In this document: one piece after another, positions 1,039-59,543 of the stretch
How the letters are laid out: every line of letters starts with the position of its first letter
How positions within the stretch are numbered: the stretch's first letter is position 1
Notes under the pieces: generated by a model
Seen by the model: the letters and a program-made list of their open reading frames with translations, nothing else
The model's database searches: none
What the model was told of the DNA's origin: nothing
Made by a program: the position numbers and the translations under genes
Source of the DNA: Eubacteriales bacterium
GTDB taxonomy: Bacteria > Bacillota > Clostridia > Oscillospirales > CAG-272
Assembly: GCA_045535815.1 (NCBI GenBank)
Contig: JAZSMJ010000034.1
Location: forward strand, 648 to 64,647
DNA length: 64,000 bases
Direction of reading: 5' to 3'

Positions 1039-1647
1039 TTACATATTCAGAAGATCTGTCGGGGTAGCAATGTGCCTGCATTCAAGCTTGTCGGCAAACG
1101 GATTCCATCCGGGTGCGGCAAAGGGAATGCCTGCATCCTTTGCAGCGATAAGATCGTTTACCGTATCGCCTAAGTACAGCGTTTCATTCGGGTCAAGCTT
1201 GAGCTTCTCCAAAGCGTAAAGCAAGGGGTCGGGGGCAGGCTTGAGCCTTACCGTTTCGTCCGCGGTAACGAAAAGGTCTACGTAACGCTCAAGGGCGAAT
1301 TTTTTGAAAAACGGGTCTGCAACGTCGTGCTTGCGTGAGGTCACTATAAGTATCTTCTTTCCCCTTGCCGAAAGCTCCTTTACCGTATCGAAAACTCCGT
1401 CGTAAAGTGGTGAGTCTTCGCCGAATTTATTGTAAAGCGCTACCCAGGTGGGAAGCACCTCGTCTATGTTTTCTATTTCAAGCGCCTGCAAGACCTCGGG
1501 TGCGGAAAGAGCAAATATCTCCTCGGAATAGGTATCCTTTGGTGAGGTAGCACCGTGCATTTTCAGGGCAAGATTGAGCGAATTGTAAAATTGATCCTTT
1601 GAGTCGACCATCGTGCCGTCAACGTCAAAAATAAAGTTATTATACAT
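1039..1647 (-). CDS. HAD-superfamily hydrolase (phosphoglycolate phosphatase-like)
   Basis: N-terminal FDVDGTMVDS (DxDGT nucleophile motif), VTSRK motif II and GDTVNDLIAAKDAG motif III. Confidence 0.85.
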   Translation of the reverse strand: MYNNFIFDVDGTMVDSKDQFYNSLNLALKMHGATSPKDTYSEEIFALSAPEVLQALEIENIDEVLPTWVALYNKFGEDSPLYDGVFDTVKELSARGKKILIVTSRKHDVADPFFKKFALERYVDLFVTADETVRLKPAPDPLLYALEKLKLDPNETLYLGDTVNDLIAAKDAGIPFAAPGWNPFADKLECRHIATPTDLLNM

Positions 1648-1736
1648 CAGTATCTCCGCAGTATTGGTAAAGTCAGTAGTATTATATCACAAAACGGCGA
1701 TTAATCAAGCGGTTTTAAATATTTTAAAAAAGTATA

Positions 1737-1790
1737 TTGACAAATTTGCTCTAATGTGTTAGACTAAATGTGAGATCTAACGCATTAGAG
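1737..1790 (+). promoter_or_regulatory. SigA-type promoter (TTGACA-17-TAGACT) overlapped by a 15-bp-arm inverted repeat; candidate BlaI-family operator
   Basis: TTGACA 1737-1742, TAGACT 1760-1765. Arms CTCTAATGTGTTAGA (1749-1763) and TCTAACGCATTAGAG (1776-1790) are complementary at 14/15 positions. The site lies just upstream of the blaI-like gene. Confidence 0.6.
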
Positions 1791-1803
1791 TGGAGGATAT
1801 TAT

Positions 1804-2160
1804 ATGGAGATCCCAAAAATATTTGAAAGCGAGTACAGATTCTGCCTTGTCTTATGGGAGCACGAGCCGATAAAGAGCAGTGAGCTTGTGGCTCTTTGCA
1901 AGGAGCGTCTCGGCTGGAAGCCCACTACTACGTATACCGTAATAAAACGGCTATCCGAGCGTGGCGTTCTTAAAAATGAAAGCAGCGTCGTGCGCTCACT
2001 CGTCACCAAGGACGAGGTGCAGATATCAGAAATAGACGAGCTGGTTGAGAAAAAATTTGAAGGCTCGCTGCCTGCCTTTATCGCCGCATTTGCGCGCAGA
2101 CAGAAGCTTTCCGATAAGGAGATCGAAGAGATAATACGCATAATCGAAAAGGAGGATTAA
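1804..2160 (+). CDS. BlaI/MecI/CopY-family transcriptional repressor
   Basis: 118 aa winged-helix protein (SELVALCKERLGWKPTTTYTVIKRLSERGVL) with a C-terminal dimerisation helix. It sits directly upstream of an M56 peptidase gene. Confidence 0.85.
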   Translation: MEIPKIFESEYRFCLVLWEHEPIKSSELVALCKERLGWKPTTTYTVIKRLSERGVLKNESSVVRSLVTKDEVQISEIDELVEKKFEGSLPAFIAAFARRQKLSDKEIEEIIRIIEKED

Positions 2161-2161
2161 C

Positions 2162-4840
2162 GTGGAGGCAGTTTTTCTTTCGGTGATGAATCTGAGCATA
2201 ACCGCAAGCTATATTGCGCTGGCGGTCATGCTGATCCGTTTGGTTTTGAAAAGAGCTCCGAGGTGGATCAGCTGCGTTATGTGGGGGATGGTAGCTCTTC
2301 GCCTTATCATGCCGTTTACGCTTGAGTGCGTTTTAAGCCTTATACCGAGCAGTAAACCGCTTCCCGATGACTTTATTTATGCCGCAGAGCCTCAGATAAA
2401 CAGCGGAATACCGTACATAAACAGCATCGTTAATCCGATACTTTCGGAAAGCATGGCTCCTGCTGAGCTTGTAAGTGCAAATCCTTCTCAGCTGTGGTCG
2501 CTCACCTTTTCTATCGTGTGGGTAATCGGAATTATTATTATGCTTTCGTATGCCGTGATAAGCTATATCCGGCTTTACCGCAGAGTTTCCGATGCGGTGA
2601 AATTAAAGGATAATATATACGTGAGCGAGAAGGTCGATTCCCCCTTCGTTCTGGGGGCGATAAGACCCGGGATATATCTTCCCGTCGGTATGTCCGAAGA
2701 GGATGAGATGCAGGTGATACGGCATGAAAGATCGCATTTAAGCAGGCTCGATCATTTGTGGAAGCCACTTGGCTTTCTTCTGCTTTCGGTGCACTGGTTC
2801 AATCCGATAATGTGGGCAGCGTATATCCTTCTTTGCAGAGATATAGAATCAGCCTGCGATGAGAAGGTCATAAAGGCGATGGGAGAAGATGAAAAAAAGG
2901 CGTATTCATATGCGCTTTTGAACTGCAGTATACACCGCAGAGCCGTAACGGCCTGTCCGCTCGCCTTCGGAGAGACCGGGGTCAGATCAAGGATAAAAAG
3001 GGTCATGAATTATAAAAAACCGGCGTTTTGGCTGATAATAATTGCCGTCTGCGCTTTGGTTATACTTGCGGTATGCTTTCTTACAGATCCGCTGAGTGAA
3101 ACGCCCGAGCTTCCCGATATCACCGCTCACAGCTATGCCGTTTCAGAGGTCATTTATCAAAGCCCTGTATACAGCTTTTTTATGATAGCAGGCGAAAACA
3201 CCCCGATCTATGCCTTAACTGACGATATGGAGCTGATGATAAAGGGAGATCTTTTCCTCTCGGATGAGTGGACGGCGTTCGGCAGACTTGCCAAGGTGAA
3301 GCTCGATAAAGATAGCTTTGACGATATGTTCGTGCTCTCATCGCAAGCAGATCTCGTTCTGTCCGATGCGGTATCGGTGTGGGCAGTTGACGACGGGAAG
3401 ATAGGATATTATCTGATACGCCAGAGCAGTGGAGAGCTCTTCCTCGTGCGTACTTCACTGCACGGTGAGAAAGGAGCGGAGGCAAGATTCCTATACCGTC
3501 TCACCGAGGATATAGGCAGCGATATGGGGGTTCTTGCTGTTTCGGGAGGTAATTCGTGCGATGTGAAGGTGTATCCGAGCGGAACCGATATTTCAACTAT
3601 AGTGTCAAAGCTTTCCTCGGTAGTGATATCGCCGTCAGAGGAGGATACCGTGCCGGTTAAGCTAATGTGCGACGGGAATGAGATAATCGCATCTTACCGT
3701 ATATACGATGCTCAGACTCTTGAGCCACTTGATTTTTTCACGCCGTCCGGATTAGCACCTCAGACCTATCTTTTCACCAACGCAAAGGCAGGCTGCAGAT
3801 ATATAATTACCGCCAGCACAGATCCGATGGCAGTAGGTGGGGATATGTATTGCTTTATAGCCGTATTGCCGCAACCCGAGTATACCGAGCTGACTTATGA
3901 GGATATAGTGCTTTCCGATGATGTAAAGGATATGCCTGCGCCCGTTATCGAATACGCTTTATCCCTTGTGCTCAGCCGTGTCGAAGAGTACAACGGATTC
4001 AGCGAATCAAATAAGATAATAACGGGACATACGTATACTGTAACCGATGCGGTTATAGACAGTATCGAGCTGATGCCGACCGGAACGTCTGCTCTTGGCG
4101 AGAGCGTGAATATGTACAGGATGGTCTGCCGTCTGAAGCCGAGCCAGGCTGAAAACGTCTTTCTTGCAGGCGGTATGCTGCTTGAGGACGGATGGTTTGT
4201 TATCACAGATCCATATTTCGTTTTGCTGTGCGAGGATCTCGGCGATGATACCAGGTGGACGAGACTTGGCACGGTCGCTTCCCAGGCGCTTATAGATTAT
4301 CAGACCCCCGAAATGCTTGACAGGTACGGAAACGAATATACCGCCGCTGCAATGGAGCTGCTTTTAGCATACAGAGAAGGCGAGGGGCACTTCTTCTCTG
4401 ACGGATGGTTTGAAAGCTTTGTCGGAGAGGACGGCAGAAATTATCATATATACAAAAAGAAATGCTACGAGTGCGGATATATTTATTCCGCTCAATATAA
4501 GTGCAAAAATTACACCTCCTTATGTGAGGGTGGGTGTATCGAGCATTGGCAGGATGCCAAGCTTACGGGAGTGTACTATATGAAGGAATTTGGAGGTGTT
4601 TCAAGTCCGAGTGTGGCGCTGTTTGATGACGGAAGCTTTACCTTCAGCTATGATGAGTACCGAAACTATCACGGTCACGGGACGTATGACGTAGATAACG
4701 GTCGGCTGACCCTCAATGTAAACGGCGACGAAAACACCTATGTGTTTGACGTAAGCGGAAGCTCTTTGGTCTTCGATGCCGATGCATCATCGGATATTCC
4801 GCTTGATTCGGGTATTACCGACGGAGCGATTTTTGAATAG
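2162..4840 (+). CDS. BlaR1/M56-family membrane metalloprotease-sensor with a long unassigned extracellular C-terminal region
   Basis: GTG start 2 nt after the blaI-like stop. Multi-TM N-terminus with HERSH (HExxH) followed by LDHLWK, typical of peptidase M56. The C-terminal ~590 aa does not look like the penicillin-binding sensor domain. Confidence 0.8.
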   Translation: MEAVFLSVMNLSITASYIALAVMLIRLVLKRAPRWISCVMWGMVALRLIMPFTLECVLSLIPSSKPLPDDFIYAAEPQINSGIPYINSIVNPILSESMAPAELVSANPSQLWSLTFSIVWVIGIIIMLSYAVISYIRLYRRVSDAVKLKDNIYVSEKVDSPFVLGAIRPGIYLPVGMSEEDEMQVIRHERSHLSRLDHLWKPLGFLLLSVHWFNPIMWAAYILLCRDIESACDEKVIKAMGEDEKKAYSYALLNCSIHRRAVTACPLAFGETGVRSRIKRVMNYKKPAFWLIIIAVCALVILAVCFLTDPLSETPELPDITAHSYAVSEVIYQSPVYSFFMIAGENTPIYALTDDMELMIKGDLFLSDEWTAFGRLAKVKLDKDSFDDMFVLSSQADLVLSDAVSVWAVDDGKIGYYLIRQSSGELFLVRTSLHGEKGAEARFLYRLTEDIGSDMGVLAVSGGNSCDVKVYPSGTDISTIVSKLSSVVISPSEEDTVPVKLMCDGNEIIASYRIYDAQTLEPLDFFTPSGLAPQTYLFTNAKAGCRYIITASTDPMAVGGDMYCFIAVLPQPEYTELTYEDIVLSDDVKDMPAPVIEYALSLVLSRVEEYNGFSESNKIITGHTYTVTDAVIDSIELMPTGTSALGESVNMYRMVCRLKPSQAENVFLAGGMLLEDGWFVITDPYFVLLCEDLGDDTRWTRLGTVASQALIDYQTPEMLDRYGNEYTAAAMELLLAYREGEGHFFSDGWFESFVGEDGRNYHIYKKKCYECGYIYSAQYKCKNYTSLCEGGCIEHWQDAKLTGVYYMKEFGGVSSPSVALFDDGSFTFSYDEYRNYHGHGTYDVDNGRLTLNVNGDENTYVFDVSGSSLVFDADASSDIPLDSGITDGAIFE

Positions 4841-4845
4841 AAAAA

Positions 4846-4877
4846 ATGCAGGATGCATAGCCGTCCTGCATTTTTTG
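4846..4877 (+). terminator. Intrinsic terminator after the blaR1-like gene
   Basis: Stem ATGCAGGA/TCCTGCAT, followed by a T6 run. Confidence 0.8.
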
Positions 4878-4906
4878 TTGCAATGCGAGGGTAGATGAGG
4901 TATAAT
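4878..4906 (+). promoter_or_regulatory. SigA-type promoter TTGCAA-17-TATAAT
   Basis: TTGCAA 4878-4883, TATAAT 4901-4906, upstream of the methyltransferase gene. Confidence 0.6.
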
Positions 4907-4944
4907 AGAATAATAACTGTAATATCAGAGAGAGAGTATTTGTT

Positions 4945-5598
4945 ATGAACAATCTTGAGCGGATGAATGAATTCTTTGCGGCGAGGGTCGACGGGTATGA
5001 CGAGCATATGCTTAATGACGTAGGCGGTTGCAAAGAGGGGTATATAAAAATGGCACAGTCCTTGCCGTATACCGTGCGCACTTTGCTCGATCTCGGATGC
5101 GGCACCGGACTTGAGCTTGACGAGATATTCAAACTGCATCCCGACGTTTTCGTTACGGGTATAGATATGACAGCCGCTATGCTCGACAGGATAAAGAAAA
5201 AGCATCCGGATAAGAAATTGGAGCTTATCTGCGGAGATTATTTCAAGGTCGGATTTAGAAAGAACGGGTACGATTGCTGCGTCTCCTTTCAGACCATGCA
5301 TCATTTCGGAAGAGCGGAAAAGACTGCGCTGTATAGGAAGATATATTCTGCCATAACGGAAGGCGGTTGCTACATCGAATGCGATTATATGGCACCGACT
5401 CAGGAGGTGCAGGACTGCCTTTTTGCTGAAAATGCGCGCATCCGTGCGGAGCAAGGGATAGCCGATGGTGAATTCTATCATTTTGACACTCCGTTTACGG
5501 TCGAGAATCAGATCGAGATGCTGAAGGATGCAGGATTTAACAAGATAGAACAGATATTCAAAATTGAAAACACAGTAATGCTGATATCACACAAATGA
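4945..5598 (+). CDS. Class I SAM-dependent methyltransferase
   Basis: Motif I LLDLGCGTGLE, downstream acidic residue in VTGIDMT. Confidence 0.85.
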   Translation: MNNLERMNEFFAARVDGYDEHMLNDVGGCKEGYIKMAQSLPYTVRTLLDLGCGTGLELDEIFKLHPDVFVTGIDMTAAMLDRIKKKHPDKKLELICGDYFKVGFRKNGYDCCVSFQTMHHFGRAEKTALYRKIYSAITEGGCYIECDYMAPTQEVQDCLFAENARIRAEQGIADGEFYHFDTPFTVENQIEMLKDAGFNKIEQIFKIENTVMLISHK

Positions 5599-5608
5599 GG
5601 AATATAAT

Positions 5609-6100
5609 ATGGATAATATCAAGGTAAGAGAGTATACGATTGAGGACATTGCGCAGATGATCGATATATGGAACACCGTCGTTGAGGACGGCGTTGCCTT
5701 TCCGCAGGAGGATATGCTTGATATGGCGAGCGGTGCGGAGTTTTTTGCCTCGCAGACATATACTGCGGTAGCCGTAGACGGCGAGGGGACCGTGTGCGGT
5801 CTTTATATACTTCATCCGAACAATATCGGCAGATGCGGACACATCTGCAATGCGAGCTATGCCGTAAAAAAGGATATGAGAGGCAGACATATCGGTGAGG
5901 CTCTGGTGCTCGACTGCCTTGCAAAGGGCAGGGAATGCGGATTTTCAATTATGCAGTTTAATGCGGTCGTTGCCTCAAATATTCATGCTCGACATCTTTA
6001 CGAGAGACTCGGATTTATACAGCTCGGCATCATTCCACAGGGCTTTCGTATGAAAGACGGGAGATATGAGGATATCTGCCCCTACTATAAAAAGCTTTGA
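5609..6100 (+). CDS. GNAT-family N-acetyltransferase
   Basis: 163 aa. Acetyl-CoA motif A-like RGRHIGEAL, and C-terminal NIHARHLYERLGF typical of GNAT. Confidence 0.8.
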   Translation: MDNIKVREYTIEDIAQMIDIWNTVVEDGVAFPQEDMLDMASGAEFFASQTYTAVAVDGEGTVCGLYILHPNNIGRCGHICNASYAVKKDMRGRHIGEALVLDCLAKGRECGFSIMQFNAVVASNIHARHLYERLGFIQLGIIPQGFRMKDGRYEDICPYYKKL

Positions 6101-6199
6101 TATTTTCATTGTGTGCCTTATCAAACGCTTTTTTGTGCAAATCGGCAAAAACCGGCGTTTATTTTTGGCAAAAACTAATTTTTAAATTTATAAATGTTA

Positions 6200-6228
6200 T
6201 TGACTTTAAAATAACAGTATGATAAAAT
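6200..6228 (+). promoter_or_regulatory. SigA-type promoter TTGACT-17-TAAAAT
   Basis: TTGACT 6200-6205, TAAAAT 6223-6228, upstream of the GH2 gene. Confidence 0.55.
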
Positions 6229-6306
6229 TGGATAAGGAAATATATTCTGCAAAAGATCGGCTTTTTTAGCGGCTTTTTCAGATAAAATAAAGAAAGGAAA
6301 TACACC

Positions 6307-9300
6307 ATGAACTACAATCGTATAAATATTTCCGACGGCTGGCAGCTTGGCTGGTGTAAAGAGACCAAGCTCAACAAATGGGTGCAGAATTTCGGCGAAT
6401 GGGAGATGAAAAACGGCTCTCTCAAGGGCTGGCGCTCCAATGCTAAGATCTACGAAAATACGGCTCTTCCCGAAGAGTATATTTTTGACTGTGATTTTAC
6501 TCTCGGAACCGATAATACCTGCATTTCGTTCTCTGTCGGCTTTTCCCTTATCAGACTTGCATATTTTGCAACCTTCCTCCGTGCAAACGGAACGGGTAAC
6601 TCTGCATACTTCTTCTCCGATATGGGAGAGGGCAATATGCTCGAGGGCGTAGGCCCGGTGCTTGAGGTAGGCAAGGCTTATCACTTCAAGGCAGAGGTTA
6701 AGGGCGGAGAGGCTGAAATATTCATAGATAACGTTTCCGCAGGTAAGTTCTCTATTGAAAGACCTCACGGAGACAGAGTGCTTCTCGCTATCCACAACGG
6801 TGAAGCTTATTTCAACAACTTCAAGATAGTATCTCTTGACGGTGAGACTCTCTTTGAGGACGATTTCTCTGAGGATTCTCTTATGAGAACCGTTCCGGTT
6901 GAGCTCGGCGAGCTTGACGTTCAGGAGTGGATCCCCGCAAAGATCCCCGGCTCTGTTCACAGAGCACTCCTCGAAGCAGGCAAGATAGAAGATCCCTACG
7001 TTGATTACAACGGACCCAAGCAGCTCTGGATCGACGATCAGAGATGGGTATACAAGAAGACCTTTACAGTTCCCTCCGAGTGGAAGGGCAAGACTGTAAG
7101 ACTTGACTTTAAGGGCGTTGACTATCACGGATATTTCTGGCTGAACGGTATTCAGCTCTGCTATCACGAGGGTATGCTCGGCGGTCCCGATATAGACATT
7201 ACTCCTTACGTTGACTTTGAAGGCGAGAACGAGGTAGTCGTTTGCATTCTTCCTTGCCCCAATCCTCCCTCTCACAACGTAAGACCCTACATATTCGGCA
7301 GATGGCACTTCAATATGGACATTCTGCCCTGCGGTATCTGGAGAGGCGTTGATCTCGTTTGCCAGGAAAACCTCATTCTCTCCGATCCCCACGTTATAAC
7401 CAAGTCCATCTCCGAGGACGGAACTGCTCATCTCGAGCTTTCCGCAACCGTTGCATCCATTGCGGCATGGCCGTTTGAATGTAAGGTAAGATTCTCGGTA
7501 AGCTCTCCCGATCCCGAGGAAGCTCCCTACACCGCTGAGGTAATAACGGGCTTCTCTCAGGGCGCTATAAGAGCTAAGGTTGAAATAGATATCCCCAACG
7601 CTAAGCTTTGGTGGCCCAACGGTCTTGGCGATCAGCCTCTTTATAAGGTTGACATCACCGGAGATCTCAAGGACTTCACACGTGACAACAAGATAACAGG
7701 TCACGACGAGCTCCATTTCAACATCGGTGTTCGTACGCTCAAGATGAATCCCTCTCCCAACAAGAACGGTCAGTACAACTGGATATTCTGCGTAAACGGC
7801 AGAGAGTTCTTCGGCAAGGGCTCCAACTGGATGCCTACAGACCAGATGCTCGATTTCACTCAGGAGAAATACGACAGACTTCTCGGTCTTGCTAAGGAAG
7901 CAAACATCAATATCCTTCGTCCTTGGGGCGCAGGTCTTATCGAAACAGACGAATTCTACGAAACCTGTGACCGCCTCGGTATCTGCGTATGGCAGGAGAC
8001 CCTTATGGCGAACAACAACTACGATAAGATCGACCGCAACGTTTGGAGAGAAACTCTCATAAGCAACGTTATCAGAGTCAGAAACCATCCGTCACTCGTT
8101 ATGTGGTGCGGCGGTAACGAATTTGACGCTGACAGCATTTACAACAAGGATGTTGTTGACGATATCGAAGCTATCGTTCGTGAATTCGATCCCGAAAAGG
8201 ATTTCCACCGTGCATCTCCGTACGGCGGTGACAACCACTCCTATCAGGTAAACTGGATGGAGGGTATGTACTATCCCCGTTACACAACGGATATGTCCGT
8301 AGCAGTAACAGAGTACTCGATGGCTTCTCCGCCTGTAATGGATACTCTTAAGGCTCTCATTCCCGAGGAAGAGTTCCAGATGTGGCCACCCAACCTTCCC
8401 GACGAGGTCGGCGGATGGAATATCGAAAACTGGGGCGACCGCAAGGTCGAGCGTAAGGAAAGCGGATTCTCCATGCACGACGCTCACCTTTCCTCCATCA
8501 CAAGAATAATGTTCAATCCCATGTCTGACGTCGGAATACCGAAGAATTGGGAAGAATACGTAAGATATACGCAGACCGCTCACGGTATGCTTACACAGTT
8601 CGGTCAGGACTTCTGGAGATCCAGATGGCCTTACTGCACATGCTCTATGAGCTGGGTGTTCAACGTTGTATTCCCCTGCACCATGAGCTGGGCATACGTT
8701 GACGGACTTGGCGTTCCGAAGCGTTCATACTACTACAAGAAGCGTTCTCTTGAGCCCCTCCATATCTGTGCGGCTTATGACGATCTCTTTACAAGACCCG
8801 GCGAGAAGTTCTCTGCAAGAATTTCGGTTGTAAACGAAATGCTTGAAGAATACCCGGATGCTAAGATAATCGTTAAGCTTTATGACAGCAACTTCGACGT
8901 TCTCAAGACGGAAGAAAAGAGCAGAACCGTCTATGCCGATATGGTTACCAAGTGCGGATACTTCGATTATGAGATCGCTGCGGACGCTAAGGAAGAGTGC
9001 CTCTTCCTCGTAACAGAGCTTTATGATAAGGACGGAAACCTCCTCTCCAGAAGCCAGTATTCGTTCAGAATAGGTCAGCCCTCAAGAAGAGCTCCCTATA
9101 TCGCAAACGGTCCCTGGATAGCAGACGTCTCTAAGAATACTACAGAGCTTTCCGTTGAAGCAGTCAAGACAGGCGAGACCACCGAAAAGGGCGAGACAGT
9201 TGCTCAGGTTACTATAAAGAACTGCGGCAATAAGCCCGCATTCCAGGTCGGCATAGAAGCTCCCGGTAACGAGTACTATATGAATTACTCGGATAACTTC

Positions 9301-9468: not shown

Positions 9469-9532
9469 GCGTACCCCCCTCCCAAAAACTTTTGGGGCAT
9501 TTTACTGGGTTAGTACTAACACAGTGCTACAT

Positions 9533-9565
9533 AAAAAAACGGCAGTCATCGACTGCCGTTTTGTG
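9533..9565. terminator. Bidirectional intrinsic terminator between the convergent GH2 and nrdR genes
   Basis: A7 run, stem ACGGCAGTC/GACTGCCGT with a 3-nt loop, then TTTTG. Confidence 0.8.
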
Positions 9566-57573: not shown

Positions 57574-57615
57574 TTCAGACTCTGTTTTATAAAAATACGA
57601 GGGAAGAATAGAATC

Positions 57616-57646
57616 ATAGCCGCCATTCAGGCGGCTATAATTTATT
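57616..57646 (+). terminator. Intrinsic terminator after transketolase
   Basis: ATAGCCGC-CATTCAG-GCGGCTAT, followed by a T-rich tract. Confidence 0.65.
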
Positions 57647-57647
57647 T

Positions 57648-57671
57648 CCCGCTTTTTTGAAAAAAAGCGGG
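57648..57671. repeat. Palindrome CCCGC-TTTTTT-GA-AAAAAA-GCGGG
   Basis: Read directly. Same architecture as 9439-9468 and 59544-59575. Overlaps the left end of the direct repeat. Confidence 0.8.
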
Positions 57672-57714
57672 GCAAAAAACTTCATAATACAAGCTGCTGT
57701 GCGAACAAAACGGT
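57665..57714 (+). repeat. Left copy of a ~50-bp direct repeat flanking the NERD/XRE cassette
   Basis: AAGCGGGGCAAAAAACTTCATAATACAAGCTGCTGTGCGAACAAAACGGT versus the right copy at 59398-59446: three substitutions and one 1-nt indel by manual alignment. Confidence 0.85.
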
Positions 57715-57797
57715 TTTTTATTAAAGTTTTGGTAAAGCAAGAATTTTTAAATATATTAATACTAATTACTCCGATATCTTAATACACATTAAACGCA

Positions 57798-57825
57798 TTG
57801 ACATATACAAAAAATATGATATAAT
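57798..57825 (+). promoter_or_regulatory. SigA-type promoter TTGACA-16-TATAAT with TG extension
   Basis: TTGACA 57798-57803, TGA-TATAAT 57817-57825. Confidence 0.6.
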
Positions 57826-57858
57826 CAAAATGTAGTAAATTTTGTGGAGATTTTGTAA

Positions 57859-59133
57859 ATGGTTGATATTAATAAAACATATTATGAATTAACCAATGTT
57901 GATATCGAAAAACAGCGTGAATTATGGGATGAAAGAGGCAAAGGCTACTACGGGGAGTTTTTGGTTTTTAAAGAGCTTTACATGAATATACCCGGAACAT
58001 GCAAAATGCTTATGAATCTTCAAATTCCAACGATAAATGGAAAAACAACCGAGATAGACTTTTTAATGATTCATGAAACCGGAATATATGTTTTTGAGAT
58101 AAAACATTACAAAGGGACTATTTACGGAAAGATTGAGGATAAAATATGGACTCAGTATTTCCGAACATCAAGAAATAATACGTTTGTAAATCCGGTTGAA
58201 CAAAACAGATATCATATCGACGCAATTTCAAAGCTTTACCCAGCCGTACCAATATATTCATATGTAGTTTTTACTAACCCTGTATGTGAATTAAAAATCC
58301 AAAATACCACATCTGAAATTACTGTATGCAACCTACGAGATCTTTTGTTTTTTGTGAATTATAAAATTAACAGTTTACCTGTATTTTTTGATATGCAGTT
58401 GATTGACTGCATTTTTGATGATTTTAAAAAACATTCTCCAATTGTTGAAAAGCCGATAAAAATTGACGGAGAAATAGTTCCGTTTTATATGTATGTAGAT
58501 GAAATAAGGAAGAACTACCAACAAAAAATAGAAGATGATGAGCTTAAATCGAAAATAAATATCAAAAGAACAAAAAAGAAGGTTTTTCTTTCAGCTATTA
58601 TTTATACTGCAACTATGCTTTGTGGGTGTTTGATTTTTGGTTTGGTATGTCATATATCAGTATTGAACAATCAAAAAATGGCATTAGATGCTCAGCAAGA
58701 GCTACAAACATTCGCTCGTAAATTTCAACGTGTTGATGAAATATCGGTTGATGATATAGTTATAACATCTGACTTAATAACTGTTTCCAATGTGCTTTTA
58801 GAAAAATCTATTGATTTAGAAGGAGTTATTAATTTTTCTTTTAGATTAAACTGGAATGGAGCCCAGTATGGTGTTGAAATTCCTAAAGGAGCAAAAATAA
58901 TAGTTGTTTTATCAGATGGAGCCGTACAAGAATATGATATTGTTATTAATTCAAGTGTTAGGTTAAATCGTTTTAATAAATATACTCAATCTAATTTATA
59001 TGAATTACAGATTATGGATATAGAGGATATTTCATATATAAAAGTAAATGGATTGAAGTTGTATAAAATTTCCAGACCTAATGTATATGTAAAAGAGAAT
59101 ATGGAAATAGAGTTATACGATTCAAATAAATAA
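57859..59133 (+). CDS. NERD (nuclease-related domain) protein with a central TM helix and an unassigned C-terminal domain
   Basis: GKGYYGEFLVFKEL...TEIDFLMIHETGIYVFEIKHYKGTIYG...NPVEQNRYHIDAI matches the NERD pattern. TM VFLSAIIYTATMLCGCLIFGLVCHISVL. Visibly AT-rich gene. Confidence 0.8.
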   Translation: MVDINKTYYELTNVDIEKQRELWDERGKGYYGEFLVFKELYMNIPGTCKMLMNLQIPTINGKTTEIDFLMIHETGIYVFEIKHYKGTIYGKIEDKIWTQYFRTSRNNTFVNPVEQNRYHIDAISKLYPAVPIYSYVVFTNPVCELKIQNTTSEITVCNLRDLLFFVNYKINSLPVFFDMQLIDCIFDDFKKHSPIVEKPIKIDGEIVPFYMYVDEIRKNYQQKIEDDELKSKINIKRTKKKVFLSAIIYTATMLCGCLIFGLVCHISVLNNQKMALDAQQELQTFARKFQRVDEISVDDIVITSDLITVSNVLLEKSIDLEGVINFSFRLNWNGAQYGVEIPKGAKIIVVLSDGAVQEYDIVINSSVRLNRFNKYTQSNLYELQIMDIEDISYIKVNGLKLYKISRPNVYVKENMEIELYDSNK

Positions 59134-59166
59134 TTTAATAAAAGAATTTTTGAAAATGGTTTATAT

Positions 59167-59367
59167 ATGATTGTTTTTGATAAGCTTTGGATAACTATGA
59201 AAGAAAAGGGAATATCCACTTATACTTTGCGTGAGGAATGCGGAATAGATAGTAAGACGGTGAGACGGCTTAAGGCAAATGAAAATATAGAGACAAAGAC
59301 TATTGATAAGCTTTGCAAGGCGCTGGATTGTAAAATAGAGGATATAGCAGAATTTGTAAAAGACTGA
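59167..59367 (+). CDS. Small XRE/Cro-type helix-turn-helix protein (66 aa)
   Basis: KLWITMKEKGISTYTLREECGIDSKTVRRLKANENIETKTIDKLCKALDCKIEDIAEF is a typical short HTH_26-like protein. Confidence 0.8.
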   Translation: MIVFDKLWITMKEKGISTYTLREECGIDSKTVRRLKANENIETKTIDKLCKALDCKIEDIAEFVKD

Positions 59368-59397
59368 AAAAGCTCTTTTGTTTGACTTCGTGGTGAG

Positions 59398-59446
59398 AAG
59401 CCGGGCAAAAACTTCATAATACAAGTTGCTGTGCTAACAAAACGGT
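59398..59446 (+). repeat. Right copy of the direct repeat flanking the NERD/XRE cassette
   Basis: AAGCCGGGCAAAAACTTCATAATACAAGTTGCTGTGCTAACAAAACGGT. Confidence 0.85.
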
Positions 59447-59452
59447 ATATTT

Positions 59453-59487
59453 AAAACCGACAGTCAAACTCCGACTGTCGGTTTTTT
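59453..59487 (+). terminator. Intrinsic terminator
   Basis: AACCGACAGTC-AAACTCC-GACTGTCGGTT, followed by a T run. Confidence 0.85.
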
Positions 59488-59543
59488 GATGTATGTTAGA
59501 ACTAACCAAGAAAAATGCCCTGAAAGTTTTTGGGAAAGGGTAC

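Follow-up and report, generated by a model that had tools for sequence, protein, structure and literature searches.

A putative moron-like gene for a predicted membrane-anchored NERD nuclease beside copies of a dispersed two-hairpin element in a Eubacteriales genome

Background

Nucleases that are membrane-bound, or that carry the NERD domain of the PD-(D/E)xK type, are known from bacterial immunity. In Shield of Pseudomonas, one gene, encoding the membrane-bound nuclease ShdA, confers phage immunity alone and lowers transformation, and its product degrades DNA in vitro (PMC10270631). In ZwsA (Zowangsin), NERD is the catalytic effector, and substitutions of E535, D567, E580 and K582 impair defence (bioRxiv 10.64898/2026.04.06.716636); for HEC-02B, a NERD effector has been confirmed experimentally (10.1101/2024.01.29.577857). 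Phage morons consist of one open reading frame (ORF) placed between two genes with its own consensus promoter and terminator, deviate in base composition and carry no recombinase, and the mechanism of their acquisition is unknown (PMC4378225 and references therein). The gene described here shares these moron features; it encodes a NERD protein of 424 amino acids (aa) and lies in a 64,000-nt stretch of a Eubacteriales genome (GenBank assembly GCA_045535815.1, contig JAZSMJ010000034.1, positions 648 to 64,647), which is referred to as the window.

In a first-pass annotation, made from the sequence alone, this gene was grouped with that of a 66-aa XRE-type helix-turn-helix (HTH) protein into a candidate defence or addiction module, bracketed by direct repeats of ~50 bp that were likened to attL/attR-type duplications. 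Its description of the block, that is, the foreign composition, the strong promoter, and the uncharacterised NERD architecture, stood, whereas the att sites and the two-gene system did not. The NERD unit is probably best read as a moron-like, horizontally acquired single-gene cassette with neither a conserved partner nor a recombinase.

Composition and organization of the AT-rich block

Based on Pfam matches, the block is flanked by the transketolase gene (tkt) on the left and by genes for PPTase and RnfD/C on the right, so its placement between transketolase and an Rnf-like operon agreed with the earlier description, as did its composition: guanine-plus-cytosine (GC) content was 0.23-0.31 over about 57700-59350 versus ~0.50 in tkt and the Rnf genes. 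A 1.5-kb segment at the block had a GC content of 0.297, against a mean of 0.438 (standard deviation 0.039) over 4282 such segments of the 2.25-Mb host genome (G000), in which values <=0.30 were reached by 0.2%, the block being among the eight lowest. The features are, in window coordinates:

About 57606-59540 (1.9 kb), plus strand: whole AT-rich block, a composite of element copies, HTH module and NERD unit
57715-59142 (about 1.43 kb), plus strand: segment absent from the comparator contig L119 (see below), holding the NERD promoter, ORF and short flanks; GC 0.29
57798-57825, plus strand: promoter TTGACA-16-TGnTATAAT, sigma-70-type with extended -10, 12/12 match
57859-59133, plus strand: NERD ORF, 424 aa, Pfam NERD PF08378
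59167-59367, plus strand: HTH ORF, 66 aa, Pfam HTH_26 (Cro/C1-type), E 1.6e-18
59453-59487, plus strand: intrinsic terminator with 13-bp stem and U-run, from RNA folding; also in L119
59543-59576: PPTase terminator, palindromic; host-specific sequence starts after 59540

The extended -10 promoter and the XRE-type HTH protein named in the first-pass annotation were thus both recovered. No terminator-like site was found between the NERD and HTH genes (59133-59167), and the NERD promoter would probably drive the HTH gene too by read-through, with the two genes co-transcribed; the NERD-HTH transcription unit ends at the 59453-59487 terminator. The only ORFs with a family match in 57606-59540 were those of NERD and HTH_26, and no recombinase of the tyrosine, serine or DDE type was found there or among the flanking genes, as had been stated for the interior of the block.

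A metagenome comparator with the HTH module alone

The sole comparator for the block was a metagenome contig of 1,024 bp (L119), found via an HTH protein 97% identical to that of the window. By blastn and alignment, nt 415-472 of L119 matched window 57653-57709 at 91%, and nt 528-907 matched window 59160-59540 at 97.9%, the latter including the HTH gene, the right repeat copy, the terminator and ~50 nt. In L119, both repeat copies lie around the HTH gene alone and a NERD gene is lacking; its outer flanks are unrelated to the window, with an upstream ORF that is missing from the host genome and a downstream sequence that differs. Homology between the two thus spans about 57653-59540, beyond both repeats, and since it passes ~95 nt past the right one, the repeats are not the ends of a foreign segment. 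As these two copies also enclose a lone HTH gene in L119, amid other flanks, the repeats travel with the HTH module; the two copies and the HTH gene evidently make up a module of ~0.5 kb that exists without NERD elsewhere.

The leader of the HTH gene is where the two arrangements part. In L119, the left element copy is separated from the HTH start codon by 62 nt, within which lie a TATAAT box and a ribosome-binding site, AAGGAG. In the window, the segment 57715-59142 takes the place of 34 nt of HTH leader kept in L119 (the -10 box and the 5′ untranslated region), and 7 nt just 3′ of the NERD segment, which in L119 carry the AAGGAG site, are absent. GC content is 0.29 in the NERD gene versus 0.35 in the HTH gene. 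It is proposed that a NERD transcription unit with its own promoter was inserted into the HTH leader, where it would have displaced the HTH promoter and ribosome-binding site. That the NERD unit sits in this leader is evident from the alignment; that it was inserted here, rather than deleted in L119, is inferred. The unit also resembles phage morons in sitting between features that are adjacent in a relative, namely, the left element copy and the HTH gene of L119.

A reverse history, in which NERD and HTH genes between the element copies are the older state and L119 is a deletion derivative without NERD, was considered because a clean 1.4-kb indel between two arrangements, with a single comparator, cannot be polarised by itself. 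It is thought unlikely because L119 keeps intact HTH expression signals: the canonical -10 box and AAGGAG site are retained in L119 and missing in the window, and a deletion would need to recreate both. The solitary state of HTH genes almost everywhere and the GC content of NERD, lower than that of HTH, argue in the same direction.

The NERD segment is edged by a 16-nt imperfect repeat (57739-57754 and 59142-59157); matches of this sort abound in AT-rich sequence such as this, and no claim is made for it.

The flanking repeats belong to a dispersed element

When aligned, the direct repeats (57665-57714 and 59398-59446) show exactly three substitutions and a single 1-nt indel, just as had been counted in the first-pass annotation. 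Their 16-nt core occurs twice in the window versus 0.05 times expected, and in an exact-pattern search of the host genome allowing <=3 mismatches the flanking pair were the only two copies. This search missed the remaining copies because those are only 70-84% identical. The first lead to them came from L119, which, when blasted against the host genome, gave diverged matches on other contigs; an iterative nhmmer profile search seeded with window 57600-57730 then converged on 36 hits, which correspond to 24 places spread over 14 host contigs. The repeat is therefore a common dispersed intergenic element, the very outcome that the first-pass annotation had named as fatal to its own proposal. As judged from sequence, the flanking repeats are two copies of this element, one full and one partial, and not att sites:

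57606-57711, plus strand: element, full copy (nhmmer model positions 4-108, 86 bits, E 1.3e-24; fold z -4.5)
57616-57638, 57649-57672 and 57673-57711: hairpin 1, hairpin 2 and tail of the full copy
59376-59443, plus strand: element, partial copy, being part of hairpin 2 and the tail (model positions 40-108, E 4e-9); corresponds to the right repeat

The left repeat is the 3′ part of the longer element at 57606-57711, which begins 33 nt past the tkt stop codon and includes what seemed to be the tkt terminator.

The element, of ~105 nt, consists of a long GC-cored hairpin 1, a hairpin 2 with a T-run/A-run loop, and a conserved single-stranded tail of ~40 nt with the consensus GCAAAAACTTTCAAAATACAGACTGCTGTGCAAACA. 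All 13 full-length copies possess both hairpins and the tail and typically lie 11-52 nt 3′ of the stop codon of a co-oriented ORF; almost none of the copies falls inside a long ORF. Folds of element copies had z values of -4.2 to -4.6, and the stems of hairpin 2 vary by CG<->AU changes between copies. From its position just after gene 3′ ends, the element behaves as a terminator or 3′-untranslated-region repeat of the REP/BOX kind. Rfam searches with it gave nothing significant, the best match being RsaF (23 bits versus a gathering score of 60), and the ~105-nt element is previously undescribed. Partial copies occur besides those listed, and some copies stand as convergent pairs. The copies elsewhere in the host genome include:

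C24:26639-26745; C15:36910-37010; C45:2350-2455; C44:1832-1917; C78:1403-1531; C42:88210-88312
Contig C30: 36796-36893, 43991-44105, 44497-44595, 47101-47199
Contig C14: 25235-25355, 25431-25529

In the light of this family, a two-gene NERD and XRE cassette, integrated site-specifically between tkt and PPTase with the repeats as attL and attR and its recombinase lost or acting in trans, is very improbable. The features that had suggested it are real: the repeats are direct, 94% identical and tightly bracket the AT-rich block, only two genomic copies exist at <=3 mismatches, and both genes lie inside the repeats and are probably co-transcribed. Yet the repeat belongs to a 105-nt element with 24 genomic places, the same pair surrounds the HTH gene alone in L119 with other flanks and homology running ~95 nt past the right repeat, NERD and HTH genes are found together in 2/60 loci, and no recombinase is present. 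As a caution for genome scans, near-identical 50-bp repeats around an AT-rich island here mimicked att sites, and counting their copies by exact matches did not reveal otherwise; it took a profile search and, by luck, one metagenome comparator to expose the diverged repeat family.

The left and right copies, at 94% identity, are each other's closest relatives, the other genomic copies being 70-84% identical, which indicates that a local duplication around the HTH gene once happened. Identity to the L119 counterparts was 88% for the left copy and 98% for the right copy.

A reading of the flanking hairpins as attC sites of an integron cassette was ruled out, since an integrase is lacking, the cassette brings a promoter of its own, and the hairpins are T-run-bearing terminators of the ordinary kind. 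The terminator and ~50 nt just 3′ of the right repeat have a 75%-identical relative at window ~9475-9562 (G000:C77:10122-10209, minus strand), which suggests that this downstream segment is also repeated.

Distribution and gene contexts of the NERD family

Database search returned 608 homologues of the NERD protein, with top matches of 420-460 aa that were 40-47% identical over 100% of the length. The family with the arrangement NERD, transmembrane helix and β-sandwich forms about 150 clusters at 50% identity; 55 loci from named metagenome-assembled genomes belong to Oscillospiraceae, Acutalibacteraceae, Faecousia, Lachnospiraceae, Erysipelotrichaceae, Bacilli, and one Selenomonadaceae. The family is confined to Firmicutes of gut and rumen, and a full-length homologue was found in 0/40 family- or order-level relatives of the host.

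In about 60 loci, the NERD gene stands alone among neighbours that are unrelated and mostly of housekeeping type, for example, next to gap, between FHA-FtsW and SCIFF, or in an ilvN-flanked islet with a PIN gene. The 88 nearest neighbour ORFs matched 134 Pfam families, none of which occurred in more than three. In nearly every locus with flanks, the GC content of the NERD gene was below that of its surroundings, often by 10-30 points. By these sequence comparisons, it is evidently an autonomous, strongly promoted, accessory and horizontally moving gene.

Three of the homologue loci showed further arrangements. In L014/L022 (JAMPHT010000005.1, ~1383-6978), a NERD homologue and the genes for a 762-aa, an 80-aa, and a PIN-domain protein make up an islet of four genes, flanked on either side by a copy of ilvN (small acetolactate-synthase subunit) inside the ilvB-ilvN-ilvC operon, with a phage-integrase fragment 3.5 kb downstream. 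L070:5001-6117 (JAAWCO010000070.1) encodes the closest relative of the N-terminus of the window protein (72% over residues 2-104), continues in another frame at 25% identity and lacks residues 105-153; either a frameshift that made it a pseudogene or a recombination event may explain this. In L050, a second, shorter NERD-domain ORF (6387-6725) lies directly 3′ of a family member, so that two NERD genes stand in tandem.

Direct repeats of 19-49 nt flank the NERD gene in six homologue loci (L018, L034, L046, L059, L065 and L071). The repeat sequences were inspected in all but L071; those of L034, L046, L059 and L065 are intrinsic terminators, with compensatory stem differences in two loci, and in L018 each copy adjoins a terminator hairpin. 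The pairs are:

L034:4872-4919 and 6327-6375
L018:370-414 and 1933-1977
L046:~1118-1157 and ~3323-3362
L059:4904-4927 and 6248-6272
L065:4167-4198 and 6456-6487

When flanks of 1 kb were compared, such repeats were present at 5/34 NERD genes versus 2/122 other long ORFs of the same loci (Fisher p = 0.006). In their respective genomes, the repeats of L034 and L046 occur at the NERD flanks only, which marks them as genuine local duplications, in contrast to the window's dispersed family. These findings hint that NERD cassettes may arrive beside a resident terminator and duplicate it. A search of relatives for the empty site of L034 gave matches only to conserved tRNA genes. The NERD gene of L034 lies ~500 nt 3′ of a tRNA-Pro gene (L034:4402-4478), and a second conserved non-coding stretch of this locus (~4703-4853) recurs elsewhere in the same genome.

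Several points weigh against reading the NERD unit as a moron-like acquired cassette. The direction of the NERD event depends on a single 1-kb comparator. No empty tkt-PPTase site was found by exact-protein look-ups of tktB and NERD (no match on record), by a PPTase-based scan of metagenome contigs (no relatives), by a search of metagenome and viral contigs for the core of the repeat (0 hits), or in 29 other same-family genomes; tkt adjoins PPTase in none of the last, so their PPTase loci give no comparison. The flanking pair arose by a local duplication that accompanies the HTH gene. Most NERD loci lie among housekeeping genes and not in defence islands, with few isolated neighbours matching defence models; no full-length family member was found in phage, plasmid and IMG/VR collections; and PADLOC and NCBIfam searches gave domain-level matches far below the cut-offs, with no matching system. 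With these points taken into account, a moron-like cassette is still held to be the probable reading, and the locus would illustrate recombinase-free gene gain, with a moron-like unit placed in the leader of a small gene beside dispersed terminator-like repeats.

The HTH gene as an occasional neighbour

The HTH family is large, with 4579 clusters at E<=1e-10 and hundreds at 82-98% identity. The 66-aa HTH_26 protein was observed to be strongly conserved (82-98% aa) over many Clostridia clusters, its gene being solitary with long intergenic gaps (window 59167-59367 and loci L111-L120), and close homologues (89-91% aa) are likewise solitary small genes in unrelated contexts, such as between leuA and ilvB. 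A hidden Markov model (HMM) of the HTH subfamily, searched against 6,246 ORFs from 59 other NERD loci, matched at L020 only, where a 71%-identical HTH gene lies divergently upstream of a NERD homologue. The subfamily thus adjoins a NERD gene in 2/60 loci including the window, which exceeds chance for a gene present about once per genome and is far from a conserved pair. Together with the solitary state of its close homologues, this speaks against the defence or addiction module of NERD and XRE proteins put forward in the first-pass annotation; by its distribution, the HTH protein appears to be an occasional neighbour, neither an antitoxin nor an obligatory partner, and possibly a recruited regulator.

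That the two genes form a toxin-antitoxin or addiction pair, with the NERD nuclease as toxin and the HTH protein as antitoxin and autorepressor, is accordingly given hardly any credence. A small HTH gene directly beside a nuclease gene in one operon is what such a pair would look like, and the divergent HTH gene of L020 and the above-chance adjacency fit it; on the other hand, 58/60 family loci have no such HTH gene within +-5 kb and yet keep the catalytic residues. The HTH protein, mostly solitary, is conserved at 82-98% aa versus <=47% for NERD, which indicates no co-evolution of the two. Moreover, the NERD promoter is a constitutive consensus promoter, the HTH gene lacks a ribosome-binding site here, and a membrane protein of 424 aa is atypical as a type II toxin.

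Domain structure and predicted topology of the NERD protein

The 424-aa protein matched Pfam NERD PF08378 at residues 28-139 (model 1-111/111; 93.1 bits versus a cut-off of 22.1, E 2e-26). In an alignment of 32 family members, the PD-(D/E)xK motif residues D67, E80 and K82 were invariant, as were H72, E73 and Q115; by sequence, the nuclease motif is evidently intact in the window protein. An AlphaFold2 model (pLDDT 84.3) showed an α/β NERD domain (~28-190), a helix at 209-285 and a β-sandwich at about 300-421 with pLDDT >90. A hydrophobic segment, ~243-266, falls within the helix and is preceded by six Lys/Arg residues versus one after it, from which the nuclease domain is predicted to be cytoplasmic (N-in/C-out). 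The protein is thus predicted with good confidence to be a single-pass, N-in membrane protein with a cytoplasmic NERD domain and an extracytoplasmic β-sandwich, and the transmembrane helix and unassigned C-terminal domain of the first-pass annotation were borne out, the last 150 aa giving no significant Pfam match when searched alone.

Foldseek related the sandwich to ApaG/DUF525-type β-sandwich domains (E 5e-5, TM score up to 0.59); for the N-terminal part it gave the Bax1 endonuclease (E 6e-4), with a low TM score, as the alignment covers the model only in part. When 1.84 billion representatives were searched with a profile of the C-terminal domain, 149 clusters were retrieved, of which nearly all are either proteins of 400-530 aa that end in this domain or fragments. 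The domain is therefore specific to the NERD-transmembrane architecture and not a shuffled module.

Possible functions

The accessory, patchy, AT-rich and context-hopping behaviour of the NERD gene supports a resemblance to defence genes, and defence is considered because of the analogy with ZwsA, HEC-02B and ShdA. It is proposed, tentatively, that the protein may serve as a stand-alone barrier that would cut incoming nucleic acid of phages or plasmids at the membrane, with an outer domain that, as sensor or anchor, would gate or position the nuclease. A more specific scheme is considered somewhat doubtful: a trans-membrane sensor-effector, in which the outer domain would detect phage adsorption, genome injection or envelope damage and the rigid helix would activate or position the nuclease against nucleic acid on its entry, and which would have spread as a recombinase-free, promoter-to-terminator cassette that duplicates a resident terminator.

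A non-immune role, as an accessory envelope nuclease in DNA processing during uptake or secretion, extracellular or cell-wall-linked signalling, or sporulation or repair at the membrane, is regarded as rather unlikely. Consistent with it are the position of most loci among housekeeping genes instead of defence islands, the limitation of the family to gut and rumen Firmicutes, the lack of phage or plasmid copies, and the resemblance of the β-sandwich to generic binding modules, ApaG or CBM-like domains. Against it, the distribution is patchy, with 0/40 relatives carrying a full-length homologue, and the gene is persistently more AT-rich than its hosts among ever-changing neighbours; patchiness, AT-richness and shifting neighbours indicate that it is gained and lost often, an unusual pattern for a core cellular function. 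If the gene acts in defence, as the membrane-barrier proposal holds, a compact one-gene class with an outside sensor, a helix and an inside nuclease would join the few membrane-acting immune nucleases such as ShdA, and would do so from under-studied gut and rumen Clostridia, with a family of ~150 clusters missing from current defence catalogues.

Other AT-rich islands of the host genome were noted at C47:71000-78500, C9:6500-9500 and C52:15500-17500 (GC 0.27-0.31 versus a mean of 0.44); they may hold further acquired genes.

Comparison with known systems

In the nuclease itself, the window protein has the NERD PD-(D/E)xK domain in common with ZwsA, HEC-02B, the BREX PglW N-terminus and MADS MAD6, and its D67...E80-x-K82 triad has the same spacing as in ZwsA. 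These proteins differ from it in being cytoplasmic and multidomain (VHS/DUF647/S4, kinase, or an ABC ATPase partner), and none has a transmembrane helix and outer β-sandwich. The best PADLOC and NCBIfam matches, PglW and MAD6, covered the NERD domain only (25-34 bits versus cut-offs of 460-990). The locus does not qualify as BREX type 2 PglW, MADS MAD6 or Mokosh-type MkoA, with matches over ~55-130 residues at 15-34 bits versus 460-990 and no partner genes in the window. The membrane-anchored NERD architecture is absent as a system from PADLOC and NCBIfam, and the first-pass annotation had likewise found no name for it.

The att reading of the repeats and the conserved gene pair of type II toxin-antitoxin systems likewise find no counterpart here, since a recombinase is lacking and the repeats are a 24-place dispersed family, and since the HTH-subfamily HMM matched at 1/59 other NERD loci. 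The flanking element, on the other hand, falls among REP-like dispersed intergenic hairpin repeats: as in REP, BOX and Correia-type repeats, it is short, non-coding, present in tens of copies, intergenic near gene 3′ ends, and folds into stable hairpins with compensatory stem changes. It differs from them by its two hairpins and ~40-nt tail, which are specific to the host lineage, and by matching no Rfam family; no associated transposase, RAYT-type or other, was seen, although no search was aimed at one.

With phage morons, the NERD unit agrees in its promoter, its terminator, its GC content (0.29 versus 0.44) and its absence from L119, with the qualifications that the HTH gene has the same terminator and that this absence is known from one comparator. 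Morons are defined in phage genomes, whereas the NERD unit is chromosomal with no prophage context visible. The best functional analogy would be ShdA, likewise a single membrane-bound protein with a nuclease of the PD-(D/E)xK superfamily. The resemblance is functional only: no RmuC match was found in the window protein with Pfam, and no sequence relationship was detected. ShdA has an RmuC domain instead of NERD, lacks the family-specific extracytoplasmic β-sandwich, and occurs in Pseudomonas defence islands, often with accessory genes.

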